64,000 nucleotides of DNA from Gemmatimonadota bacterium (GTDB lineage Bacteria; Gemmatimonadota; Gemmatimonadetes; Palauibacterales; Palauibacteraceae). The stretch is taken from NCBI GenBank assembly GCA_958295535.1, contig OY282356.1, positions 810,593 through 874,592 of the forward strand. The letters are read 5' to 3'. Shown here piece after piece: positions 28,082 to 51,022 of this stretch (position 1 is the stretch's first letter; each line of letters opens with the position of its first letter). Under the pieces are notes generated by a model. That model was not told the DNA's origin and searched no databases. It saw only the letters and a list, made by a program, of their open reading frames with translations. A program made the position numbers and the translations under genes.

Positions 28082-28094
28082 AGGGCGGCCGGAT

Positions 28095-32122: not shown

Positions 32123-35508
<3,386 letters not shown>

Positions 35509-35518
<10 letters not shown>

Positions 35519-36102
35519 CTGCGCCCGATATCGATCCCGGCTTGGCCAGTTCGATCCGGCTGGTATCGCTCGATGTGGATGGAGTGCTCACGGACGGTTC
35601 GATCTGGTTCGGTGCGAGCGCGGGTAGCCCGCCGTTCGAATTGCGCCGCTTCCACGCTCTGGACGGATTGGCGATCCGGATGCTGCAAGAGGCGGGGCTC
35701 TTGGTTGCCTGGGTCAGCGGCAAGCGGTCCTCCGCGGTTCGCCAGCGCGCCACGGAGCTGGGGGTCGCGGAGCTGTCGCTGGGCCAACGCAGGGGAAAGC
35801 TGGCGGCGGTGCGGGGTATGCTTGCCACGCGCGGGTGGACTTTCGGCCAAGCTGCGCATCTGGGCGACGATCTGCCCGATCTCGCGCTTCTGAAGCGGGT
35901 CGGCCTGCCGGCGGCGGTTGCGAATGCGGTGCCGGAGGTGCGGGCGGGGGCGGCCTGGACCAGTACGGTTCAAGGTGGAGAAGGGGCGGTCCGGGAGTTC
36001 GCCGAGGCGCTTCTCAGGGCGCGCGGAGAGTGGGACGTACTAGCGGAGAGCTTTGCGAATCAGGATCATGCGTTGCGACAGGTATCGCCGGTTGCGCCGT
36101 GA
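35509..36102 (+). CDS. kdsC: KDO-8-phosphate phosphatase (HAD family)
   Basis: LVSLDVDGVLTDG (HAD motif I)...GDDLPDLALL...AVANAVPEV. ATGCGTGTGA overlap with the kdsA stop. Confidence 0.85.
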
Positions 36103-36177
36103 AAAGAGTCCACGGCGAGCGGGGTGGTGGCTACGACGGCTCGCCGTTGCGACAGGTATCGCCGGTTGAGCTGTGAA
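36071..36177. repeat. 74-nt-period duplication of the kdsC 3' end including its stop
   Basis: CGTTGCGACAGGTATCGCCGGTTGCGCCGTGAA (36071) versus CGTTGCGACAGGTATCGCCGGTTGAGCTGTGAA (36145). The spacer forms the hairpin CGGCGAGC-N18-GCTCGCCG. Confidence 0.9.
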
Positions 36178-36216
36178 CGAGGAGAAATTCGTCATGGCGG
36201 CGACTCGGTGGTCGGC

Positions 36217-37086
36217 GTGAAGGCCGGCGCCAAGGGGCGTGCGTTGCGCATGCTCCTGTTTCCGGCGTTGCTGGGCGCCGCCGCCGCCGGATGCGGCTCC
36301 GGAGGCACGCTGCCGGCCGCCGAGCGGCTCTTCTCGGAAGATGTCGATCTAGTGATCTACGGAATGCGGACGAATGTCACTCGGGAAGGGATTAGGCGCG
36401 CGGTGGTGGAGGGAGACACGGCCGAGTTTCACGAAGGAAACGAGATTCACATTCGTCCGATGAGGGTCGTCTTCTACGATGGCATGGGCCGCCAGACCAC
36501 GGAGGTCACATCCGTGTATGGCGTGTTCGACGAAGTGGCGGGCGATCTGGACGCGACAGGGTCGGTGGTAGCCGTGGACCTGGTACTGGACCAGCGGCTG
36601 GAAACCGAGCATCTGAGATACGCGTACGCGGATGACCGCCTGTATGGCGACATGTCGTTTCGGCTGCTGCGCAATGCGGAAGGCATGGTCATCGAGGGCT
36701 CGTCATTCGAATCGGATCCGGCGCTCGACTCGGTGATCGTCTTCGATCCGTCGGGGCAGACGGGGCGTCTCGTTTCCAGCCCGGACGTGCCGGCGGCGGG
36801 AGACGATACTGCATCGGCGTCTCCGGACAGCGCGTCAGCGCCGGGAGACTCTCTGCAGGGCGCGCCCGGCGATACCACGGCGACGCCTGACGCCGAGTCG
36901 GCGGCGGGAGATTCTGCATCGGCGCCGCCGGACACTGCATCGGTATCGCCGGACACCGCCTCGGCGCTGCCGAACACCGCATCGGCGCCGCCGGACACCG
37001 TATCCGCGCCGCCGGACACTGCATCGGCTTCGCCGGACACCGCCTCGGCGCCGCCGGACACCGCCTCCGCGCCGCCGGATCCATGA
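36217..37086 (+). CDS. lptC: LptC-like LPS export protein, predicted lipoprotein with a C-terminal PDTASAP heptad-repeat tail
   Basis: Conserved position between kdsC and the OstA-like/lptB genes. Lipobox LLGAAAAGC. Beta-rich core about 150 aa long. The family call rests on context plus size. The ORF is open from 36124. Confidence 0.55.
   Translation: MKAGAKGRALRMLLFPALLGAAAAGCGSGGTLPAAERLFSEDVDLVIYGMRTNVTREGIRRAVVEGDTAEFHEGNEIHIRPMRVVFYDGMGRQTTEVTSVYGVFDEVAGDLDATGSVVAVDLVLDQRLETEHLRYAYADDRLYGDMSFRLLRNAEGMVIEGSSFESDPALDSVIVFDPSGQTGRLVSSPDVPAAGDDTASASPDSASAPGDSLQGAPGDTTATPDAESAAGDSASAPPDTASVSPDTASALPNTASAPPDTVSAPPDTASASPDTASAPPDTASAPPDP
36840..37083 (+). repeat. 21-nt (heptad) coding tandem array in the lptC tail
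   Basis: [87 protein letters not shown]. Confidence 0.9.
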
Positions 37087-39176
37087 CAGCCGGTTTCTCG
37101 AGAGTTTGTCTAGTATCGGCCGCAATCTCGTGCTTCTGCTACCCCCTCCTCGCGCAAGACGCAGACTCGGGCCGCCCGTCGGGGGCGATAGTCGGCAACT
37201 GTGCGTTGACCTGGGAGCCAGTCGACTCGAACACGCAGAGCTTCACCCACCGCGATACAGTTGGTGCGCACGTGACGCATCTAAGCGGGCGATATCTTTG
37301 GAGTTGCGGCTCGGCGACGATGGTTGCCGATAGCGCCATCAAGTGGGATGGCCCCGGCATGGTCGAGCTGTACGGAAACGTCCTCTATCGAGATAGCGTC
37401 CGCACTCTCAGGTCCGAGTTTCTCGTCTATCACCAGCTAAGGGACCTCGTTGTCGCAGAACGGTTCGTGAACTTGGAGCGTGCGTCCGACGGGTCTTTTC
37501 TCAGAGGTCCGCGTGTCGAGTTTCTGCGAGCCGTATCGGGCATCAACGCGGTCACGAGCGCCACTGGCCGCCCGATCGTGACATTCCGTGCCGAGAACGA
37601 TGAAGGAGGAGCCGGATCCTTCGAGATCCGGGCCGATAGCGTCGTCTTCGCCAGCGAGGACGAAGCTAGGTTCTTCGGTAACGCGATTATCGAGCAGAGC
37701 GGGCTTACGGCGAATGCCGACAGCGCGTATCTGATGCGGCAGGGCAACTCGGGGGTCCTCTGGGGAAGCCCGCGGATCGAGACCGAGGGGATGAGCGTCG
37801 AGGGCGATACCGTGCGGTTCGGCTCCGAGAGCGGGGAGTTGCGGCAAGTATCGGCCATCGGGCGCGGTCACGCAGTTGGCGAACGGTTCGAGGTGTCGGC
37901 CGACCGGATCGATGTCGCCATGCTTGAACGAGAGGCGAAGTCGGTTGTGGCTTACGGCAGCGGAATCGGCGAGGCGCAATCGGGCGAATCCCTTCTCTAT
38001 GGAGATTCGCTACACTTTGTCCTCTCTCAGGGGCGGATAGACACGATATACTCTGTGGGCGAGGCGGTAGCGATCCTTGGGGACAGCGCCGCAGCTGCAG
38101 CCGACTCGTTGGGTGGTCAGGGAGAAGAGATGGCGTCATCCGTTGGAGCCGGTGGCTTGCCGGGAGTCGGTGGAGCCGGGGACGAGGGCGACCTGCCGGC
38201 AGGCGCCAGTGACGGCGCACCGGGTGTCGAAGGCTTGAATGGCGGCGAGGATTCGACGGATGAACAGGAAAGCACGCCTCCGGAGCTTGGCATAGACGGC
38301 CCCGACAGCTGGGTCCGGGCGGACACGCTGGTCGCTATCTTCGAACGCCCGGGACATCTCTCGACTCCAGATTCTGCGGGAGCCCCTGCTGCTGCGGGAG
38401 CTCGGGAACCGGTATCCGCCGGTGAAGCGACGCCGGCCGACTCCCTGGCAGAACCGGGGGCGGATCCTGTGATGTCGCGCCTTCTCCTGATGGGATACGC
38501 GTCGGCTCTGTACCGGATCGTGCGAGATTCGACCGCTTCCGCACGGCCCTCGCGCAACTATCTGATAGGGGATCGCATTCAGATCGACTTCGTTGACGGA
38601 GAGCCGCGCACGGTCACGGGCGAGAATGCGGTCGGCATCTATCTTGAGCCTCAGCCCGTGCAGGCGGCGGAGGACTCGCTCGGAGCGTCGGCGGACTCCC
38701 TGGACGGCGCGGCCCGGGATTCGCTGGACGCCGCGCCGGGGGACACGGCGATTGCCACGCCGCCGGACACGGCGGCTGCCGCGCCACCCGACACGGCGAC
38801 TGCTACGCGACCGGACACGGCGGCTGCCGCGCCACCCGACACGGCGACTGCTACGCGACCGGACACGGCGACCGCCACGCCGCCGGACACGGCGACTGCC
38901 ACGCCACCGGACACTACGACCACAACGCCACGCTCGGTGGACGCTTCGTTGTCAGGTGCGAATAACGATCCCCTGGATCAGGCGCTTGCGATGCGCCTCG
39001 GCTCGGAGGGCTCGATGACGTTCCAACGCTGTCCCGTCTCGCCGGGCGTGGCGTGGCGCACCGGCGCACCCACCCCTCTCGCGTACCGGAGCCGCCGCTA
39101 CGACGCGCCGGTGTCGCCGGGCAGGCTGGAGAAGTTGTGTGCACGCCGGAGCCCAAGCGTGAGAAGCATCGGGTGA
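37083..39176 (+). CDS. large OstA/LptA-like periplasmic protein (697 aa) with an internal PDTA(A/T)A heptad array
   Basis: Signal peptide ...[10 protein letters not shown]. Repeated OstA-like segments ([23 protein letters not shown]..., [22 protein letters not shown]..., [25 protein letters not shown]...). Sits between lptC and lptB. ATGA overlap with lptC. Confidence 0.55.
38736..38930 (+). repeat. 21/42-nt coding tandem array ([16 protein letters not shown] ...)
   Basis: [65 protein letters not shown]. The 42-nt super-unit is repeated almost exactly. Confidence 0.9.
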
Positions 39177-40066
39177 GCGGCAGCTCTTCCCGAAGCCCTG
39201 GCGACTCCGGGCGGGACCGTCCTGGTTCCGGCGATAACCTTGCGGAAAGGGCCGGGCCTGCCGCCGAGCTTGGCAACGGCTCCGGCGACATGCCGCCAAG
39301 CGCCGCCAACGATCCGCGGCGCGGCGCGTCGGCTAGCGGGAACGGCAGCCTGTTGCGCGCGGAAGGACTCGTTCGGTCGTTCAAGAAGCGGCGCGTCGTC
39401 GACGATGTGGCGGTCGAAGTGCGCCAAGGGGAGATCGTGGGGTTGCTGGGGCCGAACGGGGCGGGGAAGACAACGACGTTCTACATGCTGGTGGGCCTGC
39501 TCAAGGCGGATGCCGGGAGCGTGTACATCGACAGCCAGAACATTACCCGTTGGCCGATGTACCGGCGGGCGCGCGCCGGACTCGGATACCTCCCGCAGGA
39601 GGCGTCCGTGTTCCAGAAGCTCACCGTGGAACAGAACATCATGGCGATTCTGGAAACGCTCAAGATCTCGCGGCAAGAGCGGCGCGACCGGCTGGAGCAG
39701 TTGCTCGGCGAACTGTCGCTCGAACCGCTGCGGCGGAGCAAAGCGTACTCGCTATCCGGCGGGGAACGCCGCCGGCTCGAAATCACCCGCGCGCTGGCGA
39801 TGCGTCCGAAATTCCTCCTTCTGGACGAACCCTTCACGGGCATAGACCCCATAGCGATCGACGAAATACAGCGAATCGTGCAGGAATTGACCGACAAGGG
39901 GTTGGGGATCCTGATAACCGACCACAATGTTCGCGAAACGCTGACAATCACGGATCGCGCGTATTTGCTCTTCGGGGGCATGATCCTTGTGGAAGGCCCC
40001 GCGGACGACCTTGTCAACGACCGTGTGGCTCGGTCGCTATACTTGGGGGAGGACTTCAGACTGTAG
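39173..40066 (+). CDS. lptB: LPS export ABC transporter ATP-binding protein LptB
   Basis: [16 protein letters not shown] (Walker A), [11 protein letters not shown] (signature), [12 protein letters not shown] (Walker B), [10 protein letters not shown]. The start is uncertain: GTG 39173 (GTGA overlap) or ATG 39290. Confidence 0.9.
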
Positions 40067-40269: not shown

Positions 40270-41739
40270 ATGACGCCGAGAGAGGTTGGCACGCAGCGGC
40301 ACGGCATGGCCGCCGATCTCGGTATGCGCCAGGAGATCCGAGCCAATCCGCGCTTGTACCAGGCGATGGATATCCTCTATATGCCGCTCGCAAGCTTGGA
40401 GCGGCGAATGAAGCAGGAGAAAAACGACAATCCCTTCCTCGAGATTGTCGAGCCGGACGAAGACGCCTTCGCAGGAGAGGAACGGGAGGCGGCGGACGCC
40501 GGCGGCGACGCGGATGATCCGGGCGACGATATCGAACAGGAAGACGCCCTATACTACGACGTGGATCCGGACGGCGAGAGACAGTGGGAGACTCGTGGCG
40601 GTACCGATGGTCCCACGCGGGAAGTGGTCGCGAGGCCGACCCTGCGAGAGGCTCTCGAGCGCCAGTTTCGACTGGAGAAGCTCGACGCTCGACAGACTCT
40701 GATTGGCGAACAGATACTCGACAGCATCGACAGTAGCGGTTTCCTGTCACGCCCTTTGGCGGACATTGGCGCCGCGGCCGGCGAAGTTATCCAGAATGAG
40801 GATGTCGAGGCCCGGCCCGTAAGTCCGGAGGAAGTGGCGGAAGCGCTCGCCGTAGTTCAGAGTTTCGATCCTAACGGCGTTGCCGCGCGGGATTTGCGCG
40901 ACACCTTCTTGATTCAACTGCGCAACAAGGGAGAGCGGCAGTCGCTGGCGTACGAAATTGTCCGCGACCATTGGGAAGCTGTGATAGAAGGGCGCTGGGG
41001 CGAACTGGAGCGCGAGTGCGATGTAGCTCGCGAAGCCATTGTCTCCGCCCGCGACGCGGTCGACAAGCTGGACCGCCGGCCGGGCCTGAAGTATGCGAGC
41101 GAGTTCGGCGCGTATGTCGTGCCGGATATGGAAGTGAGGAAGCTGAACGGAGGTTATCGGATCATGCATAACGATTCGATGCTTCCGCGCCTGACGCTGT
41201 CGCGGCGCTATATGGATATGCTTGGCGACGGAAAGTTCGAAGGGGAGGACAGGAAGTTCGTACAACGGAATCTTGACAAGGCGAATTGGATTATCAAAGC
41301 CGTGGAACAGCGTCGCCAGACTATGCTCGACGTCATGAGTTTCATTGTCAAGAGCCAGAGAAGCTATTTCGAGAAGGGTATCGAGCATTTGCAGCCGCTG
41401 ACGTTGGGCGATGTGGCCAAGCGTCTTGGCGTGCACCAGTCTACCGTGTCGCGCGCGACAAACGGGAAATATGTACAGACGCCGGCGGGCGATGTCGTTC
41501 CGCTGAAGCTTTTTTTTTCGGGCGGTTACGCGAAAGATGACGGCTCTCTGGTGTCTGCGCGGTCGGTAAAGGCGTGGATCAAAGAGCTGATAGACAGCGA
41601 AGATCCGGCGTCGCCGGTCAGCGACCTGGCGATTGCGCAGCTACTGGAGAAGAAGGGCGTCAGAATAGCGCGCCGCACGGTTGCCAAGTATCGTGGGCAG
41701 CTCATGATTCCGTCGTCGCGGATGCGGAAGGCGATATGA
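40270..41739 (+). CDS. rpoN: RNA polymerase sigma-54 factor
   Basis: Region I-like LGMRQEIRANPRLYQAMDILYMP...NDNPFLE, an acidic region II, the HTH, and the RpoN box ARRTVAKYR near the C-terminus. GGAGAGGGG lies before ATG 40270. Confidence 0.95.
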   Translation: MTPREVGTQRHGMAADLGMRQEIRANPRLYQAMDILYMPLASLERRMKQEKNDNPFLEIVEPDEDAFAGEEREAADAGGDADDPGDDIEQEDALYYDVDPDGERQWETRGGTDGPTREVVARPTLREALERQFRLEKLDARQTLIGEQILDSIDSSGFLSRPLADIGAAAGEVIQNEDVEARPVSPEEVAEALAVVQSFDPNGVAARDLRDTFLIQLRNKGERQSLAYEIVRDHWEAVIEGRWGELERECDVAREAIVSARDAVDKLDRRPGLKYASEFGAYVVPDMEVRKLNGGYRIMHNDSMLPRLTLSRRYMDMLGDGKFEGEDRKFVQRNLDKANWIIKAVEQRRQTMLDVMSFIVKSQRSYFEKGIEHLQPLTLGDVAKRLGVHQSTVSRATNGKYVQTPAGDVVPLKLFFSGGYAKDDGSLVSARSVKAWIKELIDSEDPASPVSDLAIAQLLEKKGVRIARRTVAKYRGQLMIPSSRMRKAI

Positions 41740-42671
41740 CGAGCGGCGCCCCTCGCGTGTCGATCATCGTGCCCGCGTACGACGAAGCCGACAATATGCC
41801 CGAGCTGTTCGCCGAGCTGGCCGAGACATTCTCCAAGCACGACTTCTCGGCGGAAGTCGTCGTCGTCGATGACGGATCGGCGGATGGCACGGCGCTGGCT
41901 GCGGAAAGCGCGGCATCGAATGCCGGCCTGGAAGATGTCGTGGTGCTGCAGCACCGAAGAAACCTCGGCAAGACGGAGGCGGTGCTGACGGCGTCGGACG
42001 AGGCGCGCGGGGAGCACCTGGTTCTATTCGATGCGGACCTGCAACACGATACGGACGAGATACCGCGCTTCGCCGCGATGTTGGATGACGGTTACGATGT
42101 GGCCGTCGGTCGCAAGGTGGGGCGCTACCAGAAACAGTTCGTCTCGTCGATCTACAACTGGTTCGCCCGCGCGATCTTTCGAGTCCCGGTTCGGGATCTG
42201 AACGCGATGAAGGCGTTTCGGGCGGATGTGCTGAAGGGACTCTCTCTTCGGCACGACTGGCACCGGTACTTAGTCGTGCTCGCGCACGCGGAGGGATACC
42301 GGATAGGGGAGCTGGACATCGCCTTGCGTCCGAGACGCCATGGAAAGCCGAAGTTCTCGGGCAGCGGCAGGATCGTGGTCGGCACCTTCGACTTGCTGGC
42401 GGTGTGGTTCCAACTGGTGGCCGGGCGGAAACCGCTCCTCTTCTTCGGCGCCACCGGCCTCGGGCTTGTCGCATCCGGCATAGCGACGGGGTTGGTGGCC
42501 GTGGTGCTCCGTCTGGCGTTCGGCCTCGGTTTCCGTCCCTTGCTGACACTCGTCGTGCTCCTGGTGGTCGCCGGACTGCTCCTCTTCATGCTGGGCTTGG
42601 TCGCGGAGCTGATAGCCCAGCTTCGAGACGAGGTCGAGATCCTCAAACGGGACCGGTGTGACCGCGGGTGA
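41736..42671 (+). CDS. GT2 polyprenyl-phosphate glycosyltransferase (ArnC/GtrB/DPM-synthase-like) with C-terminal TM helices
   Basis: VSIIVPAYDEADNM...VVVVDDGSADGT...LFDADLQHD (DxD), then two hydrophobic helices at the C-terminus. The ATG overlaps the rpoN stop (ATGA). Confidence 0.8.
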   Translation: MTSGAPRVSIIVPAYDEADNMPELFAELAETFSKHDFSAEVVVVDDGSADGTALAAESAASNAGLEDVVVLQHRRNLGKTEAVLTASDEARGEHLVLFDADLQHDTDEIPRFAAMLDDGYDVAVGRKVGRYQKQFVSSIYNWFARAIFRVPVRDLNAMKAFRADVLKGLSLRHDWHRYLVVLAHAEGYRIGELDIALRPRRHGKPKFSGSGRIVVGTFDLLAVWFQLVAGRKPLLFFGATGLGLVASGIATGLVAVVLRLAFGLGFRPLLTLVVLLVVAGLLLFMLGLVAELIAQLRDEVEILKRDRCDRG

Positions 42672-43900
42672 GAGTGGTTCATGTCGTCACCGCATTTCCG
42701 CGCCACGAGGGAGATGTCATCACGCCATGGTTGGTGCGGTTGCTGCTCGGACTCCGCGACGCCGGCGTCGATGCGGCGGTCCTGGCGCCGGCGTACCGGG
42801 GTGGCGGAGCGACCGAGTGGCGCGGCATCCCGGTGCGGAGGTTCCGCTACGCGCCGTCGTTTCTCGAGACGTTGACCCACGACCAGACCGTGCCTGACAG
42901 GTTGCGCTCCCGCCCCTGGGCGGCCGGACTTCTCCCGGCGTACATGGCGGGAGGGAGCGTTGCGTCGGTTCGCATGGGCGTAGCGGAACCTCCCGATGTG
43001 GTGCATGTCCACTGGCCCGTGCCGCACGCATGGTTCGGCGGCATCGCGCGGGCGGTCACGGACGGTTCCGCGGCGCTGGTCTCCACCTTCTACTCGGTGG
43101 AGATTCGCTGGATAGAGCGCCGGCTGCCGTGGGCGCTGCCCCTCCTTCGCTGGTCGGTCGAAGCATCGGATGCGGTGACCGCCATCTCGTCCTCGACCGC
43201 TGCCGCCCTCGGGCGGTACACCGGTCGCGATGTGCCGGTAATCCCCTTTAGCGCCTCGCTGTCGGCGACTCGAAGCGGTGCGGGGGCGGCGGTCGCCGCC
43301 GGCGCCGGACGGCTGCGAATACTCTTCGTGGGCCGTCTCGTCGAGCGCAAGGGCGTACCGGCGCTGATCCGGGCGTTGGCTCTGGTTCGAGAACGGCTGG
43401 ATGCCACGCTGGAGATCATCGGTGATGGGGAGTCGGCCGCGCAGCTGCGCTCCGAAGCCGAGCGGGCCGGGGTCGCTGCCGCGGTCGCCTTCCGGGGCCA
43501 AGTGGATGAGCGAGCGCTTCAGGAAGCGTACGAGAGGGCGGAGCTTCTCGTCCTTCCGGCCGTGGTCGACAGCAAGGGGGACACGGAGGGCCTTGGAGTC
43601 GTTCTCCTCGAAGCGCTCGAGTTCGGGCTGCCGGTGGTGGCGTCCGAGGTCGGCGGCATTCCCGACATCATCCGTCACCGCGAGACGGGACTACTGGTTC
43701 CGCCGGGAGAACCAGCTTCGCTTGCGGAGGCGATCCTCGAGGTGGCTGCCGATCCAGGCGCGGCGCGAGAGCGAGCCCGCCGAGGCCGGCGAGAGGTCCG
43801 CGAGCGCTTCGGGATGCAGGGCATAGTGGATCGCCTCATGGAGTGCTACCGGGACGCCATGGCCGCGCGACGCGGAGAAACGAGATGCGCCGTCCCGTGA
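42668..43900 (+). CDS. GT4-type (GT-B, RfaG-like) glycosyltransferase
   Basis: MRVVHVVTAFPRHEGD..., C-terminal EGLGVVLLEALEFGLPVVASEVGGIPDII...GLLVPPG (E-x7-E motif). GTG overlaps the upstream stop. Confidence 0.85.
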   Translation: MRVVHVVTAFPRHEGDVITPWLVRLLLGLRDAGVDAAVLAPAYRGGGATEWRGIPVRRFRYAPSFLETLTHDQTVPDRLRSRPWAAGLLPAYMAGGSVASVRMGVAEPPDVVHVHWPVPHAWFGGIARAVTDGSAALVSTFYSVEIRWIERRLPWALPLLRWSVEASDAVTAISSSTAAALGRYTGRDVPVIPFSASLSATRSGAGAAVAAGAGRLRILFVGRLVERKGVPALIRALALVRERLDATLEIIGDGESAAQLRSEAERAGVAAAVAFRGQVDERALQEAYERAELLVLPAVVDSKGDTEGLGVVLLEALEFGLPVVASEVGGIPDIIRHRETGLLVPPGEPASLAEAILEVAADPGAARERARRGRREVRERFGMQGIVDRLMECYRDAMAARRGETRCAVP

Positions 43901-43978
43901 ATCCCGCGCTCGTTCCCCATTCCCCTGCGGCGCCGCCTTGGCTCCGCGCTCCCCGCGAACGCCGCCGGTCTCGTCCGG

Positions 43979-44090
43979 CGACCTTCGCTCGCGCCGTGGC
44001 AGCGGGGCTTGTGCGCGGGTCTCGCAAACGGCCTCTAGGGCGCGGTCATCCATGACTTTCGCTCGCGCCGCGGCGGGGCTGGCGCTGCTG
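43979..44090. repeat. 74-nt-period duplication of the 5' end of the GT-C gene
   Basis: GACCTTCGCTCGCGCCGTGGCAGCGGGGCTTGTGCGC (43980) versus GACTTTCGCTCGCGCCGCGGCGGGGCTGGCGCTGC (44054, directly after the ATG at 44052). Confidence 0.8.
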
Positions 44091-45560
44091 CACATCCTGC
44101 TCGGGCTACTCGTCTTCGAGCCGGTGCTGAACCGCGGCGGCGACAACGCCCTGTATCTGATTCTCGGCGATGCGTTACGGAGCGGGGATGGATACCGCGA
44201 CCTTCACCTGCCCGGGACGCCGCTCCACACCAAGTATCCTCCGCTGCTGCCGCTCCTCCTGGCAGGAGTCGGCTGGGCGGGCGTCGGCGCGGCGAAGATC
44301 GCGATGCTTCTCCTCTCGGGGACGCTCGTATGGACCGCCGCTCTCATGGCCCGTACCGTCGCGGGAGACCGGACGGCCCTGCTCTTGGCCGGCGCGTTGG
44401 CGGCGAATCCGACTCTTCTGGAGTACGGACACTACATTCTGAGCGAGGTGCCGTTCACCCTTCTCGTCGTAGCCGCGCTGTGGCTGGCGAACCGCGAGAC
44501 GCCCCGGAGCGCCGGGCTGGCGATGTTCGCGGCCGCCGGGGCGTTCGCCACTCGCTCGGCCGGCTTGGCCATCCTTCTCGCGCTACCGGCGGCCTGGCTG
44601 CTTCAGCGCCGTTTCCGCAGGGCGGCCGTATCCGGCGCGGTTGCGGCCGCCACGCTCGGGGGTTGGACCATCTACCAGCGGTCGGCCGGTAGCGGCGGGA
44701 CAAGCTACTTGGAGCAGCTGCTGAGCGTCGATCCGTACGCGGCATCGGCCGGCACGGTGAACCTAGCCGGACTCGCTGGCCGCGCCGCCGAGAACTTCTG
44801 GGCTTACGCCAGCCGTGTCATGCCGCACACGGTGTTCGGTATCGAAGGCGAGGCGGCTGGCGGCGTAGCGGTCGTAGCAGGGCTGGCATTTGCGGCGGCC
44901 GCGGTGGTCGGGTGGACGATACGGACCCGTGCTCGCGCCGGCGCGCCCGAGGTGTTCGCCGTGCTCTACGCATCGCTGATCGCCGTCTGGCCGCCCGTGT
45001 GGACAGACCGCCGCTTTCTGCTTCCGATGCTGCCCGTGCTCCTCCTGTTCGCATTGACCGCCGCCGGAAAGCTGCCGTCGTCGTATGGCCGGTGGCTGAA
45101 GCCGGGAGTCGCGGCGTCGATCGCGTTATTCGGAGTTGCGTGGGTGATGAGCACGGCCCCCGGCCGCCTGGATTGCGTCGGCGCGTACCGGGACGGCCGC
45201 CCCTGCGAAGCGGCCAACTTTGCCAGCTTCTATTCGGCTGCGCGCTGGGCCCGCGACAACACGTCACCCGATGCGATCATTGCAAACAGGAAGCCAGGAT
45301 TTTTCTACTGGTATGGACGCCGGCGGGGAGATGTGTATCCGTACTCCAGCGACCCGGTGGCGGTCATGCGCGGCTTGGAGGGGATGGGCGCGGACTACGT
45401 GGTGGTCGACAGAGTCAGCCTCACCACGGACAGGTACCTGATCCCGGCGATGCGGGCCCATCCGAACCGTTTTCGACTCGTCTACGAAGGAGGCAATCCT
45501 CCAAGCGGGATATTCCGTCTTCTCCCGTCTCCGGCAAGCGCGCCGGCGGGCGATTCGTGA
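44052..45560 (+). CDS. GT-C fold membrane glycosyltransferase, ArnT/PMT-like (GT39/GT83-like)
   Basis: More than 10 TM helices. N-terminal loop GDNALYLILGDALRSGDGYRDLHLPGTPLHTKYPPLLPLLLA (D-containing first periplasmic loop plus a PPL motif typical of the family). Soluble C-terminal domain. Confidence 0.6.
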   Translation: MTFARAAAGLALLHILLGLLVFEPVLNRGGDNALYLILGDALRSGDGYRDLHLPGTPLHTKYPPLLPLLLAGVGWAGVGAAKIAMLLLSGTLVWTAALMARTVAGDRTALLLAGALAANPTLLEYGHYILSEVPFTLLVVAALWLANRETPRSAGLAMFAAAGAFATRSAGLAILLALPAAWLLQRRFRRAAVSGAVAAATLGGWTIYQRSAGSGGTSYLEQLLSVDPYAASAGTVNLAGLAGRAAENFWAYASRVMPHTVFGIEGEAAGGVAVVAGLAFAAAAVVGWTIRTRARAGAPEVFAVLYASLIAVWPPVWTDRRFLLPMLPVLLLFALTAAGKLPSSYGRWLKPGVAASIALFGVAWVMSTAPGRLDCVGAYRDGRPCEAANFASFYSAARWARDNTSPDAIIANRKPGFFYWYGRRRGDVYPYSSDPVAVMRGLEGMGADYVVVDRVSLTTDRYLIPAMRAHPNRFRLVYEGGNPPSGIFRLLPSPASAPAGDS

Positions 45561-45587
45561 TGGGCGGGCCGACTAGCCGAGATGCGG

Positions 45588-45675
45588 GCATCCGGCTGGC
45601 GTACAGTCCGCCGGACGCGCTTCGGCATCCGGATGGCGTACAATCCGCCGGACACGCTTCGACATCCGGAGGCGC
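45588..45675. repeat. 37-nt tandem repeat, about 2.3 copies, between the GT-C and YfhO-like genes
   Basis: GCATCCGGCTGGCGTACAGTCCGCCGGACGCGCTTCG / GCATCCGGATGGCGTACAATCCGCCGGACACGCTTCG / ACATCCGGAGGCG... Confidence 0.85.
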
Positions 45676-45717
45676 CCGTCCGCTCGGCCACGGTCGCCAA
45701 GTGAACGCGGGCTGAAG

Positions 45718-48192
45718 TTGAACGCTCGAGGCCGCGACGGCCGAGACTTCACGCTTTGGTGGTTCCTGGGCGGCGCGGCGGTGGTTTGCACGCTGTTCTA
45801 CCGGGATTTCATATTCCATCCGGAACGCCTGATCTTCGGCTCGGACATGCTCTTCGAGGGGATTTCGCTGCGGCGCTTCTACACGGACGAAATCCTGGCG
45901 GGCCGCGGCGTGCCCATGTGGGTGCCGCACGTATATGGCGGGATGCCATTCGTGGGGTTGCTGCCCGGGCCGATCTTCTACCCGACCACGCTCCTGTACC
46001 TGCTGATGCCGTTGCACCGCGCCATCGGCTGGACATTCGTCATGCACACCTTCCTGGGCGGCGCGTTCGGCTACTTTCTGGCGCGCTCGTTTCGGTTGCG
46101 GCCATCTTCGGCGGTCGTGTGCGGCGGCGCGTTCATGCTCACCGGCTACGTCACCTCCCACCTCTGGGGAGGACAGGACGGACGCATGTTCGGCATGGTT
46201 CTGATCCCGCTCGCGCTCGGCTGCCTGAACCGCGGGCTCGAGAGCGGGAAAGCCCGGTGGTTCTGCGGAGTGGCCTTCGCGATCGCCGCGCAGACATTCA
46301 CTCCTCACACCCAGGTGATGTACTTCTCGTCTCTAGCGTTGGCTCTCCTGTTTCTCTTCCACATCGTTTTCCGAATTCCGCGAGACAGGGGACGAGCGAC
46401 GCGGGACAGGGAACGAACTCCGCGGGACAGGGGACGAACTCCGCGGGGAGACGAACAGGCTGGAGGCCGCGATCGGAGCGGACGGGGAGATCGAGCGTCC
46501 CCGGGCGACCGGAGAAGAGCTGCGCTGAAGCCGTATCTGAAGCCTGTCGCCGGCTTCGGTCTGGCGGTTGCCGGCGCCGTAGCGCTGAGCGGCCCCCAGC
46601 TCTTCCCGACGCTCGCGTTGCTTGGGAGCGTAACGAGGGTCAGCGGGGGCGCCGGGTACGAATTTGCCGCCTCCTTCGCGCTGCCCCCGCAAGAGCTGAC
46701 GGCGTTCTTCCTCCCCGACCTCGTGAGTTCGCTCCCCGGCTCGTATTGGGGATCGAATCCTCTCAAGCTGCACACCGAGTATCTCGGCTCGGTGCCGATC
46801 GCCCTGGCGATCGTGGGCGTAGCGGCTGGATTCGGACGAGGCGCTCCGCTGTCGCAGCGCCGCGTAATCCGGTTTCTGGCGGCGGCCAGCGTGCTGGGCG
46901 TCCTCTTCGCCATGGGGGACAAGACGCCGGTCCACCGTATCGCGTACTACACGCTGCCGCTGATGGACAGCTTGCGGGCGCCTGCCATGATGATAGGGCC
47001 GGTGACCGTGTTCGTCTCGCTCCTGGCGGCGTATGGCTGGGAGGCGGCGCTGCGGTCCAGATCGGGGGAGGACATTCGGATCTCCTGGCCGGCGCTCGGT
47101 CTCCTTGGGGGGCCGCTTCTTCTGCTTGGCGCGGCTGCCGCGGTCAATCCGCAGGGCCTGCTGAACTTTGCGGTGGCGTCGTGGTACCCCGAGGGTTGGC
47201 CGCGCCGGCCCGACCCCGCTCTCGCATCTGCGCTGCGCGCGAACGGTCTGTTGCTGCTGGCGGGTTTCGCCGTCTCGTGGATCGCGTGCTGGACGGTCGC
47301 GCGGCGGAGGATCGGATCGTGGGCGGTCGCGGCGGTGGTAGTCGTCGGCGTCGCGGATCTCTGGCGCGTCGATGAGCGCTATCTGGTCGTGGCCGACGCG
47401 TCTCCCCAACTCGCGCCGGACGGGATAATGACGACGCTCGCCGAAGTGGCTGGTCCGGGGGAGCGGGTGTGGGCTCCGAATTTGGCCGGCGCCCCTCGCA
47501 ACTACCGGCCCAACGAGTTGACGTATCACGGTGTTTCCTCGGCGGCGGGGCTGCAGAAGTTCCTGCTTGATCCGTACGCGCGGCTGATCGGAGGATCCCC
47601 CGAGGAGGGCCTGATTCGTTATCCCGAGGCTCGCGAACTGTTGAATGTGCGCTACGTAATAATGCCCGGGCGGCAGGAGGGCGTGGAGTCGGTGGCGGAA
47701 GCGTCCGGCAGGAACCTGTACGCGTTCCCGCCGGGCGCCGGGTACGCCTACTTTCCGGCTGGCATCACGGAGGCGCCGGACAGCTCGGCGGCGCTGGCCG
47801 AAGTTCGCCGGAACGGCGACTTCCCGGCCATGTCCATAGTCGAAGAGAGGCCGGGCTTCGCTCCGCCGGAGGCGGGGCGGGGAAGCGCGGCGGTGGTGCG
47901 GTACGAGCCGGACTTCATCGAGCTGGATGTCGTGGCGGAGAAGGCCGGGCTGCTCGTGGTCAGCGAGCTGCACGACCCCGGCTGGCGAGCGTTCGTGGAT
48001 GGAGACGAGCGGGATGTGTGGCGCGCCAATGCGGCGCTTCGCGGCGTCGTCGTCCCGGAGGGACGGCACCGGCTCGTCTTCGAGTACCGGAGCCGGTCCT
48101 TCGCGTTAGGCGTGTGGACGTGCTTTGCCGCCCTCGGCCTAGCCGGCGCGGGATTGGCGCGATCGTGTCTCAGGTCGCGGCGCGGCAGCTGA
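45718..48192 (+). CDS. YfhO-like GT-C family membrane protein (824 aa)
   Basis: N-terminus FYRDFIFHPERLIFGSDMLFEGISLRRFYTDEILAGRGVPMWVPHVYGGMPF resembles the YfhO signature (G-D...W-P...GG-P). Many TM helices and a large C-terminal extracytoplasmic domain. Confidence 0.6.
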   Translation: MNARGRDGRDFTLWWFLGGAAVVCTLFYRDFIFHPERLIFGSDMLFEGISLRRFYTDEILAGRGVPMWVPHVYGGMPFVGLLPGPIFYPTTLLYLLMPLHRAIGWTFVMHTFLGGAFGYFLARSFRLRPSSAVVCGGAFMLTGYVTSHLWGGQDGRMFGMVLIPLALGCLNRGLESGKARWFCGVAFAIAAQTFTPHTQVMYFSSLALALLFLFHIVFRIPRDRGRATRDRERTPRDRGRTPRGDEQAGGRDRSGRGDRASPGDRRRAALKPYLKPVAGFGLAVAGAVALSGPQLFPTLALLGSVTRVSGGAGYEFAASFALPPQELTAFFLPDLVSSLPGSYWGSNPLKLHTEYLGSVPIALAIVGVAAGFGRGAPLSQRRVIRFLAAASVLGVLFAMGDKTPVHRIAYYTLPLMDSLRAPAMMIGPVTVFVSLLAAYGWEAALRSRSGEDIRISWPALGLLGGPLLLLGAAAAVNPQGLLNFAVASWYPEGWPRRPDPALASALRANGLLLLAGFAVSWIACWTVARRRIGSWAVAAVVVVGVADLWRVDERYLVVADASPQLAPDGIMTTLAEVAGPGERVWAPNLAGAPRNYRPNELTYHGVSSAAGLQKFLLDPYARLIGGSPEEGLIRYPEARELLNVRYVIMPGRQEGVESVAEASGRNLYAFPPGAGYAYFPAGITEAPDSSAALAEVRRNGDFPAMSIVEERPGFAPPEAGRGSAAVVRYEPDFIELDVVAEKAGLLVVSELHDPGWRAFVDGDERDVWRANAALRGVVVPEGRHRLVFEYRSRSFALGVWTCFAALGLAGAGLARSCLRSRRGS
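46379..46460 (+). repeat. 21-nt in-frame tandem repeat x3.5 encoding an Arg/Asp-rich loop
   Basis: CGCGAGACAGGGGACGAGCGA / CGCGGGACAGGGAACGAACTC / CGCGGGACAGGGGACGAACTC / CGCGGGGAGACGAAC, translating to RDRGRAT RDRERTP RDRGRTP RGDEQ. Confidence 0.85.
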
Positions 48193-48194
48193 CG

Positions 48195-49214
48195 ATGTGC
48201 GCGAGCAGCCGCGAGACCACAAGCCGCCGTTCCGGTGTCGCGGCGCCGCGCGCTGCCACCTTGGCCGCGGCGGCGTTCCTGCTCGCCGCGCTAGTCGCCG
48301 TCGGACTGGCCCTGTCGGGCAGCTGGGGCGAATGGCCGGCCATCCAGGCGGCAGCCGGGCACGGCTGGCGAATCAGGCCGCTGTATTTGGCGACAGCCCT
48401 GGTCTGCGCCGCGACCGCCCTGCTTTGCAGCGGCGCCGTCTGGGGCGCTCTCTTTCGCGCCGGGGGCGGCGAGATGGACAGGCGCGAAGCGGTTGCCGCG
48501 TGGATCGGCTCGAATCTGGGGCGCTACCTGCCCGGCAAGGTATGGCAAGTTGCGGGCTTGGTCGGGTACGTCCGCTCGCGCGGCGGGCCGGGAGCGGCCG
48601 CGCTTTCCGCGCTCCTCGTCAGCCAGGCGTCGCTGCTGTCCGTCGCCGCGGCGGCGAGCCTAGCGACTCTGGGCGCCGCGGCGTTCGCCGGCATGGGGCC
48701 ATGGGCGGCCGTGCTCGGGGTTCTGGGAGTCGCCGCGGCGTTCGCGCCCCCCGTGTTGCGCGCCGCGGTTCGCCTGGGCGCGCGGCTGCTGCGCGAACCT
48801 GCCGGCTCCGCCGCCATTTCCGCATCCTACGGCTTGAGAACATCGGGCCGGACGGCCGCCGCGAGCCTGCTGGTCTGGTGCCTGCACGGCCTCGGGTTCT
48901 GGTTCTTGATCAAGGGGCTCGTGGCCGAGATCCCCGTCGGCCCGTCCGAGGCGGCGGGCGTGTACGCGGCGGCCTACCTGGCAGGCTACCTCGCCTTGAT
49001 AGCGCCCGGCGGCATTGTCGTGCGGGAGGGAGCGATCGTAACCCTCCTGGGTCTGGTTGCTTCGGTGCCGCCCGGTCCGGCGGCGGCGTTGGCGCTCGCC
49101 GCCCGCATCTGGTCCACGTGCGCCGAGGTTGCGGCGTTCGGAGCCGCGGCGGCCGTGGCGGGGCTAGCCGCGCGGCGGCCCGGGGGATGCCCCGGGGCCG
49201 TGGTCGATCGGTAG
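48195..49214 (+). CDS. UPF0104 / LPG-synthase-TM (flippase-like) membrane protein
   Basis: Polytopic protein with the SNLGRYLPGKVWQVAGL motif typical of the lysylphosphatidylglycerol-synthase TM domain family. The ATG lies 3 nt after the YfhO stop. Confidence 0.6.
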   Translation: MCASSRETTSRRSGVAAPRAATLAAAAFLLAALVAVGLALSGSWGEWPAIQAAAGHGWRIRPLYLATALVCAATALLCSGAVWGALFRAGGGEMDRREAVAAWIGSNLGRYLPGKVWQVAGLVGYVRSRGGPGAAALSALLVSQASLLSVAAAASLATLGAAAFAGMGPWAAVLGVLGVAAAFAPPVLRAAVRLGARLLREPAGSAAISASYGLRTSGRTAAASLLVWCLHGLGFWFLIKGLVAEIPVGPSEAAGVYAAAYLAGYLALIAPGGIVVREGAIVTLLGLVASVPPGPAAALALAARIWSTCAEVAAFGAAAAVAGLAARRPGGCPGAVVDR

Positions 49215-49218
49215 CTCC

Positions 49219-50022
49219 ATGAATGCCATGAAGGCCGGCGCGCCGAACGGTCTCGAGGCCGGGAAGGCCGACGCGCCACGCGATCCGAAGAGCGGGAAGT
49301 CGGACGGCGAGCGCGCCCTGGTCATACTGCCTACCTACAACGAGGCGCAGGCTATCAGGGAGACCATCGCGGCGGTGTTGGCGCAGGGCGACCGCTTCTC
49401 CGTTCTGGTCGTGGATGATGCATCGCCGGACGGGACGGGCCAAGCGGCCGACGAGATCGCAGCCGCCGACTCCCGGGTTCACGTCTTGCACAGGGAGGGG
49501 AAGCTAGGGCTCGGTTCGGCGTATCTGGATGGGTTTCGCTGGGCGCTCCAGCGCGACTTCGGCCGGATCTTCGAGATGGACGCGGACGGATCGCACGACC
49601 CTCGCTATCTGCCCAAGCTGCTCGCGGCCGCCGAAGAGCTGGACCTGGTTATCGGTTCTCGCTACGTGCGGGGCGTCAACGTGATCGACTGGCCCATGTC
49701 GCGTCTCCTCCTGAGCTACTACGCGAACAAGTACGCCCGGCTGGCCACGGGGCTGCGGCTAGCCGATGCCACGAGCGGCTTCAGGTGCTTCAGGCGCCGC
49801 GTGCTCGAGGCGCTGGACCTCGGCGCGGTCGGATCGACCGGATACACCTTCCAGATCGAAGTGGCCTTTCTAGCGTGGAAGAAGGGGTTCCGCGTCGGTG
49901 AGATTCCGATAGTCTTCACCGGACGGTACCTGGGCGAGAGCAAGATGTCGGGCCGGATCATCTTCGAGGCGGTCTGGAGAGTGTGGGCTCTTCGGGTACG
50001 CTCCATAGCCGGGAGATTGTGA
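49219..50022 (+). CDS. polyprenol monophosphomannose synthase (Ppm1/DPM1-like GT2)
   Basis: LVILPTYNEAQAI...VLVVDDASPDGTG...HREGKLGLGSAYLDGF...FEMDADGSHDP...VIGSRYV...DATSGFRCFRR...GYTFQIE...GESKMS. Confidence 0.9.
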   Translation: MNAMKAGAPNGLEAGKADAPRDPKSGKSDGERALVILPTYNEAQAIRETIAAVLAQGDRFSVLVVDDASPDGTGQAADEIAAADSRVHVLHREGKLGLGSAYLDGFRWALQRDFGRIFEMDADGSHDPRYLPKLLAAAEELDLVIGSRYVRGVNVIDWPMSRLLLSYYANKYARLATGLRLADATSGFRCFRRRVLEALDLGAVGSTGYTFQIEVAFLAWKKGFRVGEIPIVFTGRYLGESKMSGRIIFEAVWRVWALRVRSIAGRL

Positions 50023-50023
50023 G

Positions 50024-51022
50024 ATGTTTCACAAGACGATGCCGTATGTGCAGTCGAAGCATGTTCCGGTCCAGCCGGCGATCGACTACGAACGCCATCC
50101 CGCGTTCAGAGACCGTGCCCGGTGGAGAAACGATGTCCACCGCGTAGTCTTCGGGAACATCACGCGTGCAGGCCGTCTGTTCGACGTAATTCTCATCTTT
50201 GTCATCCTGGCCAGTGTCGGGGTGGTGATGCTGGAGAGCGTGGATCGCTTCGCCTCGCGTTCGCGGGGGGTTCTCTGGGCGCTCGAATGGGTGTTCAGCG
50301 CGACGTTCACCATCGAGTACGCGTTTCGGCTGGCTAGCGCACAGAGGGCCGGGCGTTACGCTCGATCGTTCTTCGGGATCGTCGACCTGATGGCTATCCT
50401 GCCGACCTACATCGGATTGGTGGTGCCGGGCGGCCAGGCGTTAGCCGTCATCCGCGTACTGCGGGTGCTGCGCGTGTTCCGGGTTCTCAAGCTGGCGCAG
50501 TTCGTCGGCGGGGAAGTGCTCCTCCTTCGCGCCTTCCGGTCCAGCATGCACAAGATTGCCGTCTTCCTCATCGCGGTCGTCGTGGTCGTCGCGGTGGTGG
50601 GCGCGGCGATGTACGTGATAGAGGGACCCGGCTCGGGCTTCACCAGCATCCCGGTGGGCGTATACTGGGCTATCGTGACGGTCACGACGGTCGGCTACGG
50701 AGACGTGACTCCCGTCACGGTCGCGGGGCGGGCGCTGGCCTCTCTCCTGATGATTCTGGGATATGGCGTGATCGCGGTGCCGACCGGCATAGTGACCGCC
50801 CAGATCGCCGGGGACCGCCGGATTCTGGCGCGCGCTACGAGGCGTGGCGGCCTCCGGGACTCGGGTGGCAGCCTCCGGGGCGCGGGCGGCGTCCGGCCCG
50901 CAGTGCGCGAGCCGCCCGGCTTCGGCGACAGAGACGAACGGGCGTGCCCGAAGTGTCCCGCGGTCGGCCACCATCCCGACGCGCAGTACTGCCAGTATTG
51001 CGGCGAGGCGCTTGGCCAGTAA
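50024..51022 (+). CDS. voltage-gated-type K+ channel (6TM) with a C-terminal zinc ribbon
   Basis: S4 RVLRVLRVFRVLKL, selectivity filter TVTTVGYGD, C-terminal CPKC-x13-CQYC. The ATG lies 2 nt after the upstream stop. Confidence 0.9.
   Translation: MFHKTMPYVQSKHVPVQPAIDYERHPAFRDRARWRNDVHRVVFGNITRAGRLFDVILIFVILASVGVVMLESVDRFASRSRGVLWALEWVFSATFTIEYAFRLASAQRAGRYARSFFGIVDLMAILPTYIGLVVPGGQALAVIRVLRVLRVFRVLKLAQFVGGEVLLLRAFRSSMHKIAVFLIAVVVVVAVVGAAMYVIEGPGSGFTSIPVGVYWAIVTVTTVGYGDVTPVTVAGRALASLLMILGYGVIAVPTGIVTAQIAGDRRILARATRRGGLRDSGGSLRGAGGVRPAVREPPGFGDRDERACPKCPAVGHHPDAQYCQYCGEALGQ

Follow-up and report, generated by a model that had tools for sequence, protein, structure and literature searches.

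What do the six glycosylation genes that follow the sigma-54 gene rpoN in Gemmatimonadota do, and on which acceptor would their products act? We addressed this question in a stretch of 64,000 nucleotides (nt), hereafter the window, from a Gemmatimonadota bacterium (GenBank assembly GCA_958295535.1, contig OY282356.1, positions 810,593 to 874,592 of the forward strand). Its + strand carries, in this order, kdsB, pyrG, kdsA, kdsC, an LptC-like gene, an LptA-like gene, lptB, rpoN, GT2-A, GT4, P4, P5, P6, and GT2-B (Table 1). The proteobacterial operon lptB-rpoN-hpf-ptsN-rapZ-npr has the backbone kdsC-lptC-lptA-lptB-rpoN in common with it, in the same order, but here the genes behind rpoN are for glycosylation and not for ribosome hibernation or the nitrogen phosphotransferase system, with an overlap between the stop codon of rpoN and the first of these genes. 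A first-pass annotation, made from the sequence alone, had placed six such genes behind lptB-rpoN, and all six are there on the + strand. The comparison of related loci shows that they form a conserved unit of two analogous modules, which by their sequence families appear to follow a three-component logic. Module A consists of GT2-A and P4, and module B of GT2-B, P6, and P5. In the three-component scheme of GtrABC and CsbB-GtcA-YfhO, a GT2 enzyme loads a monosaccharide onto polyprenyl phosphate, a flippase moves the lipid-linked sugar, and a GT-C enzyme transfers it outside (PMC5836110, PMC8035078, PMC11127046). We give a probability of about 60% to the explanation as a whole, that is, to a two-module glycosylation unit together with the mechanism and the acceptor set out below.

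For each of the six genes, the family named in the first-pass annotation agrees with profile searches, with the families of its homologues, or with its predicted fold. GT2-A aligns over residues 6–301 with residues 8–303 of ArnC (PDB 9hwj, 2e-26), followed by GtrB (5ekp) at 5e-17. It contains the DXD motifs VVVDDGSADGT and FDADLQHD, and two hydrophobic transmembrane segments at its C-terminal end (residues 244–262 and 272–290). With 104.5 bits, it does not reach the cut-off of the ArnC equivalog NF007986, which is 529 bits. GT2-A is hence an enzyme of the ArnC type but no ArnC orthologue. The partner P4 was assigned through its homologues and its fold. PMT_2 is matched by 20 of 30 P4 homologues at E ≤ 0.01, with a best value of 1.4e-9. 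The AlphaFold model of P4, built on the homologue alignment, has a mean predicted local distance difference test (pLDDT) score of 90.6 and a predicted template modelling (pTM) score of 0.90. When it was compared with the PDB by Foldseek, all 28 matches at E ≤ 1e-3 were GT-C enzymes, with STT3/AglB/PglB, ALG12, ArnT, DPY19, ALG9, Pmt4, PimE, and AftB among them; STT3 scored 1e-8, and ArnT 4e-7 with TM-scores of 0.58/0.55. The model has ~11 transmembrane helices and a small C-terminal periplasmic domain bearing two invariant Cys residues. Invariant motifs are GGDN in loop 1, right after the first transmembrane helix and including Asp31, and WPxVWTDRRF; the HTKYPPL of P4 belongs to an HxxYPPL motif that is invariant among homologues. 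Judged from this model, P4 is a PMT_2-like GT-C glycosyltransferase. Its family is well conserved in the homologue alignment and also large, as a search of its profile against 1.84 billion representatives found 1431 clusters at E ≤ 1e-30. Among ten profile matches looked up, the sole named taxon was Gemmatimonadota.

The likeness to ArnC and ArnT raises a first alternative, in which the cluster decorates lipopolysaccharide (LPS). One or both modules would act on lipid A phosphates or on 3-deoxy-D-manno-octulosonic acid (Kdo)/core sugars at the periplasmic face, and GT4 would be a core enzyme of the LpcC/WaaG type. Precedents are ArnC/ArnT for 4-amino-4-deoxy-L-arabinose, LgmA/LgmB for glucosamine, FlmF/FlmK for galactosamine, and RgtE/RgtA-D for galacturonic acid. 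The cluster shares with these systems an end-to-end alignment to ArnC, which is the top NCBIfam and PDB match of GT2-A over its full length, and an ArnT-like fold of P4. ArnT has the best mutual TM-score to P4, is also among the top fold matches of P5, and belongs to the PMT_2 family that P4 homologues match. Linkage to LPS genes is a further likeness, as the cluster forms the 3' end of the string of Kdo genes (kdsB, kdsA, and kdsC, with kdsD in relatives) and lptC/lptA/lptB. However, GT2-A scores far under the ArnC cut-off, and P4 has its own invariant motifs, GGDN and WPxVWTDRRF, which set it apart from ArnT. Among the cluster genes there is none like ArnA, ArnB, ArnD, ArnE, or ArnF, and hence no tailoring genes, deformylase, or flippase of the Arn type, nor any other deacetylase. 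The presence of rpoN means that the operon is not functionally uniform, the sequon arrays of the Lpt proteins described below would be left unexplained, and to our knowledge no YfhO-family enzyme acts on LPS. We regard LPS decoration as the full account with doubt, well short of even odds.

Module B contains the second GT-C enzyme, P5. YfhO is matched by all 26 aligned P5 homologues, with a best value of 4e-15, and PF09586 stands in the precomputed annotation of nearly all of 120 P5 homologues. The P5 model (pLDDT 83, pTM 0.86) has a β-rich domain with a β-sandwich at residues 620–770 and a final transmembrane helix at residues 772–802, and its fold matches are AftD, ArnT, STT3, Emb, and PglB. 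The loop-1 Asp (D22), located after the first transmembrane helix, is invariant. P5 is thus, as far as homologues and model can tell, a GT-C glycosyltransferase of the YfhO family. The first-pass annotation had taken both large membrane proteins for GT-C enzymes; the PMT_2 and YfhO matches of their homologues and the predicted folds agree with this, and no assignment to a non-glycosyltransferase family was obtained. PDB sequence and profile searches with P4, P5, and P6 returned nothing meaningful. At residues ~200–260 (46379–46447), P5 has an Arg/Asp-rich low-complexity insert of RDRGRTP-like units, which is encoded by a 21-nt DNA repeat and lies in a predicted cytoplasmic loop where the pLDDT of the model is below 50.

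P6 matches LPG_synthase_TM with 39.6 bits (cut-off 33.4) over profile positions 9–294 of 302, and 19 of 23 P6 homologues match it as well. A mechanical open reading frame at 48197–49222 was rejected as the UPF0104 gene, since it is Arg-rich and out of frame; the true gene lies in the 48018 frame. MprF has a domain of the PplT family, to which P6 belongs, as its flippase, and fusions of this family to GT-A or GT-B enzymes are frequent (bioRxiv 10.1101/2022.03.11.483950), and one member is the proposed flippase of gpgSDF, the operon for glucosaminyl-phosphatidylglycerol (GlcN-PG) (PMC12713373). From this family membership, we infer that P6 is a candidate lipid flippase. GT2-B matches the Pyrococcus dolichol-phosphate-mannose (DPM) synthase 5mlz over residues 33–258, with its DAD motif in MDADGSHD. 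It is below equivalog cut-offs, with 77.6 bits against 370 for PpgS (NF058614) and 65 bits for AglJ. No hydrophobic or transmembrane segment was found in GT2-B. GT2-B lacks a membrane anchor, and the P6 gene is its constant direct neighbour; P6 may therefore recruit GT2-B and/or flip its product. We then compared the two modules with each other. GT2-A and GT2-B are 29% identical, and alignment of the P4 and P5 profiles by hhalign gave a probability of 0.9%, so the two GT-C enzymes are unrelated at profile level. Recent duplication was therefore rejected for the GT2 pair and for the GT-C pair. The first-pass annotation had called the lipid-carrier and GT-C steps duplicated, which holds in the sense of two analogous steps but not of gene duplication.

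The UPF0104 membership of P6 bears on a second alternative, a membrane glycolipid or lipoglycan. In this case, GT4 and/or GT2-B would glycosylate a cytoplasmic-side phospholipid or diacylglycerol, P6 would flip the product as proposed for GpgF and HexF, and the GT-C enzymes would extend it with polyprenyl-phosphate sugars on the outer side of the membrane. The model is the actinobacterial synthesis of phosphatidylinositol mannosides (PIM), lipomannan, and lipoarabinomannan by PimA/B, Ppm1, PimE, and Mpt enzymes. The combination of a GT4, a Ppm1-like GT2, and GT-C enzymes mirrors the PIM pathway, and PimE is among the fold matches of P4. UPF0104 proteins are tied to lipid-modifying glycosyltransferases through GT-A/GT-B fusions and the gpgSDF operon, and GT4 weakly matches a GlcNAc-phosphatidylglycerol synthase (NF053787, 53 bits). 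However, the GpgS match is far under the 480-bit cut-off, the cluster has no deacetylase, and P6 always adjoins GT2-B and the YfhO gene, not GT4. The operons gpgSDF of Pseudomonas aeruginosa (for GlcN-PG) and hexSDF of Clostridioides difficile also have a glycosyltransferase gene beside a UPF0104 gene, but they possess their own deacetylase, no GT-C, and no polyprenyl-phosphate-sugar synthase, whereas the UPF0104 gene here is flanked by YfhO and a DPM-synthase-like GT2. We know of no such lipoglycan in Gemmatimonadota or other diderms of the Fibrobacterota-Chlorobiota-Bacteroidota (FCB) group, and consider this alternative quite improbable.

The first-pass annotation had proposed gene-neighbourhood conservation as a check on the cluster, and we found the order behind rpoN conserved over about 80 Gemmatimonadota species representatives. 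GTDB species representatives were scanned with the P4 profile, which gave 80 loci, plus long contigs, and fifteen proteins of the window were run by tblastn against all loci. The counts given here cover the assessable loci, namely 67 upstream, 54 downstream, 70 junctions, and 46 complete. The 80 loci are all from Gemmatimonadota metagenome-assembled genomes (MAGs) except for two short contigs. The genes for RpoN and GT2-A immediately precede that for P4 in 66 of 67 loci, those for P5, P6, and GT2-B follow it in 53 of 54, and the synteny holds down to 35% identity. L058 and L077 were rejected as synteny exceptions, since runs of 100 N lie at the breaks in these 'chromosome'-level MAGs (CP070670 and CP070812), and L077 still has a GT2-A fragment upstream of P4 beside the scaffold break. 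The commonest complete order is rpoN-GT2A-P4-GT4-P5-P6-GT2B (30/46), in which GT4 is positioned between the two modules. The order of the window, with GT4 before P4, is found in 12 of the 46 complete loci, and the remaining four, from sponge-symbiont Palauibacter genomes, have P6 before a divergent YfhO gene (P6-P5'-GT2-B). P5, P6, and GT2-B are contiguous in 42 of 46. Since GT2-A adjoins P4 in the commonest order and the other three are adjacent to each other, GT2-A is paired with P4 and the other three form a trio, which supports the earlier view of two modules in one locus. Throughout the Gemmatimonadota sampled, the glycosylation unit is thus a 3' extension of the kdsB-pyrG-kdsA-kdsC-lptC-lptA-lptB-rpoN string. 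The two short contigs are labeled Akkermansiaceae (L052) and Acidimicrobiia (L081) and carry lptB-rpoN-GT2-P4 at identities typical of Gemmatimonadota. Because their gene order and identity are typical of this phylum, the two labels are probably binning errors in public MAGs.

The gene junctions are consistent with one transcription unit. The rpoN stop codon TGA (41737–41739) shares bases with the ATG of GT2-A (41736) in the sequence GATATGA, and a check of the sequence showed the GT2-A/GT4 junction to be a GTGA overlap; both overlaps had been described in the first-pass annotation. The spacings of P5/P6, P6/GT2-B, and GT2-B/ion channel are at most 4 nt. Only some junctions of the cluster are tight in this genome, as there are ~150 nt before P4 and 160–220 nt before P5; in relatives, such as L001 and L003, the cluster genes overlap or abut. 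A start codon in the GT2-A frame that overlaps the rpoN stop codon is present in 64 of 70 loci, as ATGA in 57, as GTGA in 5, and with a 1-nt overlap in 2. For this overlap, the final codon of rpoN has to end in A. As the G+C content at third codon positions is ~80–85% in these genes, an A there is rare, which argues for selection on the junction. Inside the cluster, terminator-like sites are not in excess (6 found, 6.8 expected). The sigma-54 promoter consensus gave no signal across the window, with 44 matches against 48 expected, and an Rfam scan of 35–52 kb returned zero matches. Given these three negative results, the simplest reading would be that the cluster is transcribed together with rpoN and that translation of GT2-A is coupled to it. 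The stretch between P4 and P5 contains 2.4 tandem copies of a 37-nt unit (45587–45674) that is absent elsewhere in the window. This stretch shows slightly better folding than shuffled sequence does (z = -2.0) and has no counterpart in relatives such as L003, whose P4 and P5 genes overlap. An insertion or a region with an internal promoter would be possible explanations.

These junctions also bear on a third alternative, namely that the genes are not one system and stand after rpoN by coincidence. They would encode glycosyltransferases that have nothing to do with each other, would serve exopolysaccharide, S-layer, or other polymers, and would each have their own promoters. The two gaps before P4 and P5 in this genome would fit this alternative, and so would the accessory genes that differ among lineages. 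However, no assessable locus, down to 35% identity, has the core five separated from each other or from rpoN, genes overlap or abut in relatives such as L001 and L003, and the ATGA junction is conserved. With synteny already disfavouring it, we consider it extremely improbable.

Which acceptor would the two modules serve? An aside of the first-pass annotation had named the heptad-repeat Lpt proteins, and this is the most interesting lead. The tail of the LptC-like protein is a tandem D-(S/T)-(A/V/L) array with eight copies of 'PDTASAP' (DNA repeat 36916–37079, motif cluster 36727–37065). The LptA-like protein has a tandem array with seven copies of 'PPDTATAT' (DNA repeat 38741–38914, motif cluster 38673–38918), and its motif count is 26, against 3.1 expected. 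The recurring element of both tails is D-(S/T)-(A/T/L/I/V), or D[ST][AILVMT] as a pattern, and at least five motifs per 60 residues were taken as a motif cluster or dense array. In a six-frame scan of the window, the two tails are the only motif clusters, and in 1.38 Mb of related loci 82 of 82 motif clusters are inside the LptC/LptA zone. Among 1820 D[ST]X triplets of 122 Lpt open reading frames, the third position is A, T, L, I, V, or M in 87%, with G, P, R, D, E, and S underrepresented. The same frames contain 1584 D-led motifs and only 122 E-led ones, although the abundances of D and E are about the same; 192 reversed motifs were counted. Motif density per 1000 residues is 29–34 in the Lpt proteins and 0.2–5 in the products of 13 further gene families at these loci. 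The repeat units vary by lineage while the motif is kept. The LptC-like protein has no direct Pfam match. Its N-terminus (36250–36310), MLLFPALLGAAAAGCGS, resembles a lipoprotein signal with a lipobox Cys and not the usual LptC transmembrane anchor.

D(S/T)(A/I/L/M/T/V) is the sequon of the general O-glycosylation of Bacteroidota (PMC10897501, PMC12871550). This pathway has been likened to eukaryotic O-mannosylation; its transferase and core-glycan machinery have eluded discovery for over 15 years, and a 2025 review lists the transferase, the core-glycan flippase, and the ligase as undiscovered (PMC12871550). In a preprint of July 2026, YfhO was predicted in silico to be this transferase in Bacteroidota (bioRxiv 10.64898/2026.07.27.740950). 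The co-encoding of a YfhO GT-C, a PMT_2-like GT-C, and a DPM-synthase-like GT2 with sequon arrays fits this proposal well. The locus shares with the Bacteroidota system the three-residue motif, the third-position preference, and the location of the motif on periplasmic proteins. Both phyla belong to the FCB group, a YfhO GT-C is encoded in the same operon here, and O-methylation genes accompany the cluster in relatives. In contrast to the Bacteroidota system, the cluster has no lfg-type locus with wzx and many glycosyltransferases, and glycosylation of the Gemmatimonadota sequons is a prediction.

We propose the following mechanism. At the inner membrane face, each GT2 would transfer a monosaccharide from a nucleotide sugar to undecaprenyl phosphate. 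P6 would anchor GT2-B, which has no transmembrane segment, and/or flip the lipid-linked sugar, and the loop-1 Asp of P4 and P5 would be used for sugar transfer to the periplasmic acceptor. At the cytoplasmic face, GT4 and a methyltransferase would be responsible for the addition or modification of another sugar. The rpoN gene and the cluster would be co-transcribed, with GT2-A translationally coupled via ATGA. As acceptor we tentatively favour, at somewhat less than even odds, Ser/Thr of D-(S/T)-(A/T/L/I/V) sequons on periplasmic proteins, with YfhO (P5) and/or P4 as transferase. The LptC-like and LptA-like arrays would be prominent substrates. Module A may instead, or additionally, decorate lipid A or the Kdo core; as there are two modules, protein and LPS acceptors are not mutually exclusive. 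A more specific version, which is possible but on the unlikely side, is that the operon is the Gemmatimonadota form of an FCB-group sequon-directed O-glycosylation, with the YfhO GT-C, possibly together with the PMT_2-like one, as the sequon-recognising transferase that acts in the manner of O-mannosylation, polyprenyl-phosphate monosaccharides from the two GT2 enzymes as donors, flipping by the PplT protein, and LptC/LptA as dedicated, heavily glycosylated substrates.

Several points weigh against the two-module explanation and its acceptor. P4 itself has no Pfam match even at E = 10 and no NCBIfam or PDB sequence match. P5 scores 27.7–27.8 bits against YfhO (PF09586), 0.7 bit short of the cut-off of 28.5, and does so in its C-terminal region only. 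For P6, sequence searches did not detect the solved structures of MprF. The cluster lacks a flippase of the GtrA or Wzx type as well as an initiating phosphoglycosyltransferase. The gaps of ~150–220 nt upstream of P4 and P5 in this genome could house internal promoters. Dense arrays occur in 35 of 56 loci and the glycosyltransferase cluster in all, so the Lpt tails cannot be its sole reason. The Bacteroidota system is thought to move oligosaccharide glycans linked to undecaprenyl diphosphate en bloc, whereas the donors suggested here are phosphate-linked monosaccharides and not diphosphate-linked oligosaccharides. The Kdo/Lpt context and the resemblance to ArnC/ArnT would suit LPS as the acceptor just as well. 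All that is said here of donors, carrier lipid, flipping, topology, co-transcription, and acceptor is inferred. PplT-type proteins are documented or proposed for flipping of phospholipids or glycolipids, not of polyprenyl-phosphate sugars (PMC12713373), and the experimentally known acceptors of YfhO are teichoic acids (PMC5836110).

The part of the cluster that differs among lineages is the cytoplasmic one. GT4, which reaches no NCBIfam equivalog cut-off, belongs to a cassette inside the constant core that varies, as it is joined or replaced by other enzymes in relatives. An S-adenosylmethionine (SAM)-dependent methyltransferase is encoded in the cluster of 51 related loci (e.g. L001:12969-13712 and L003:16610-17365), either between GT4 and YfhO or past the ion channel, and in the homologue P0188 (1040 residues) a SAM methyltransferase is fused to YfhO. 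The SAM methyltransferase of the cluster was not found in the 64-kb window. A UDP-GlcNAc 2-epimerase gene adjoins a divergent GT4 in L077 (11538-12692), in L004 (16150-17310, - strand), and in 13 other loci; these represent the deepest-branching clade and the sponge-symbiont Palauibacter genomes. The cluster of L004 additionally holds a TylF-like O-methyltransferase and a secreted protein with Laminin_G/Ig domains. This variation suggests lineage-specific glycans, possibly with N-acetylmannosamine and O-methyl sugars.

The window is part of a 3.05-Mb metagenome-assembled contig (ENA ERZ19489113), and independent gene calls support lptB, rpoN, and P6. The window has a G+C content of ~67%, and its closest relatives are 'Candidatus Palauibacter' (Gemmatimonadota). 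The order kdsB/pyrG/kdsA/kdsC is the same in related loci. In distant relatives, kdsD (SIS + CBS) is located between kdsC and lptC (L001:3423-4394); it is not at the corresponding position (34634–36250) in the window or in Palauibacter-type loci. On the 3' side of GT2-B, the + strand encodes a voltage-gated-type ion channel and then two DUF5916/CBM9 proteins. The channel gene starts 1 nt past the GT2-B stop codon, and this tight linkage is confined to the Palauibacter-like clade. About 13 kb upstream of the cluster (27924–29274), ispF (YgbB) is followed by a gene for a DedA/VTT-domain membrane protein. DedA-family proteins are undecaprenyl-phosphate recyclers, and it is speculative that this gene could supply the recycling required by GT-C reactions. 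A phosphomannomutase/phosphoglucomutase-family gene at 18815–20182, within the same + strand gene string, might provide the sugar-1-phosphates from which the donors are made.

Table 1. Genes of the kds-lpt-rpoN string, the glycosylation cluster, and the adjoining ion channel (positions of the window)
Feature	Coordinates	Strand	Evidence
kdsB	32123-32872	+	CTP_transf_3
pyrG	32862-34634	+	CTP_synth_N
kdsA	34694-35518	+	DAHP_synth_1, 210 bits
kdsC-like haloacid dehalogenase (HAD) phosphatase	35509-36102	+	Hydrolase_3, 28 bits
LptC-like protein	36250-37086	+	Position; 39% identity to L001 gene carrying PF06835 LptC
LptA/OstA-like periplasmic protein	37083-39176	+	Homologous to L001 gene with faint PF03968 LptD_N match
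lptB, ATP-binding cassette (ABC) ATPase of LPS transporter	39136-40066	+	ABC_tran 123 bits; independent gene call
rpoN (sigma-54)	40270-41739 (alternative start 40306)	+	Sigma54_AID, CBD, DBD; gene call; N-terminal alignment with relatives
GT2-A, 311 aa, GtrB/ArnC-type polyprenyl-phosphate glycosyltransferase	41736-42671	+	Glycos_transf_2 89 bits (cut-off 23)
GT4, 410 aa, GT-B fold, cytoplasmic	42668-43900	+	Glycos_transf_1 131 bits; Glyco_transf_4 47 bits
P4, 502 aa, divergent PMT_2-like GT-C (predicted)	44052-45560 (alternative TTG start 43938)	+	Homologues, fold
P5, 803-824 aa, YfhO-family GT-C (predicted)	45781-48192 (alternative start 45718)	+	YfhO, homologues, fold
P6, 339 aa, LPG_synthase_TM (UPF0104, PplT) polytopic membrane protein	48195-49214 (alternative start 48165)	+	Pfam, gene call
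GT2-B, 267 aa, DPM-synthase/Ppm1-like polyprenyl-phosphate hexose synthase catalytic domain	49219-50022	+	PDB 5mlz 1e-32
Ion channel, voltage-gated type	50024-51022	+	Ion_trans, 122 bits

How does the unit relate to known systems? GtrA/GtrB/GtrC serve O-antigen modification in enterobacteria, and CsbB/GtcA/YfhO serve teichoic acid glycosylation in Bacillus and Listeria. Like them, the cluster combines a GtrB-type GT2 having two C-terminal transmembrane segments with GT-C enzymes, one of which is of the YfhO family. Unlike them, it has no small flippase of the GtrA/GtcA type between rpoN and the ion-channel gene, where P6 (UPF0104/PplT) is the sole flippase candidate, and it unites two synthases and two unrelated GT-C enzymes in one operon embedded in kds-lpt-rpoN. 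The host here, different from those of CsbB/GtcA/YfhO, is a diderm without teichoic acids. The systems for protein O-mannosylation, Ppm1/Pmt in Actinobacteria and DPM synthase/PMT in eukaryotes, also resemble the cluster. Its DPM-synthase-like GT2 has no transmembrane segments, like domain 2 of Ppm1 and DPM1, and would require a membrane partner, the PMT_2-like GT-C has HxxYPPL, and the candidate acceptors are Ser/Thr-rich and disordered. In comparison with these systems, however, P4 has no MIR domains, the cluster adds a second GT-C (YfhO) and a GT4, and in place of a loosely defined S/T/P-rich context there is the candidate sequon D-(S/T)-hydrophobic.

Each part is of a kind already known, and the cluster alone amounts to a solid annotation, not to a discovery. 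What distinguishes it is the dual three-component unit with a putative flippase of the PplT type, its position at the 3' end of kds-lpt-rpoN, and the co-encoded Lpt sequon arrays. In the library of papers searched, none links Gemmatimonadota, rpoN, and glycosyltransferases, or this phylum with the cluster or with O-glycosylation. The kds-lpt-rpoN operon is extended invariantly across the phylum, with a conserved ATGA overlap, and this architecture was not described before. The PplT protein occupies the slot of a GtrA-type flippase beside a DPM-synthase-like enzyme without transmembrane segments, which suggests a polyprenyl-phosphate-sugar role for a widespread orphan family. The locus is an independent line of evidence on the link between YfhO and the sequon, and offers a compact set of six genes together with a natural substrate. 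If the link is true, this would be the first genomic-context evidence tying YfhO to the sequon and a pointer to the 'core glycan' machinery that is still missing in Bacteroidota, and the Lpt bridge would be glycosylated across the whole phylum.

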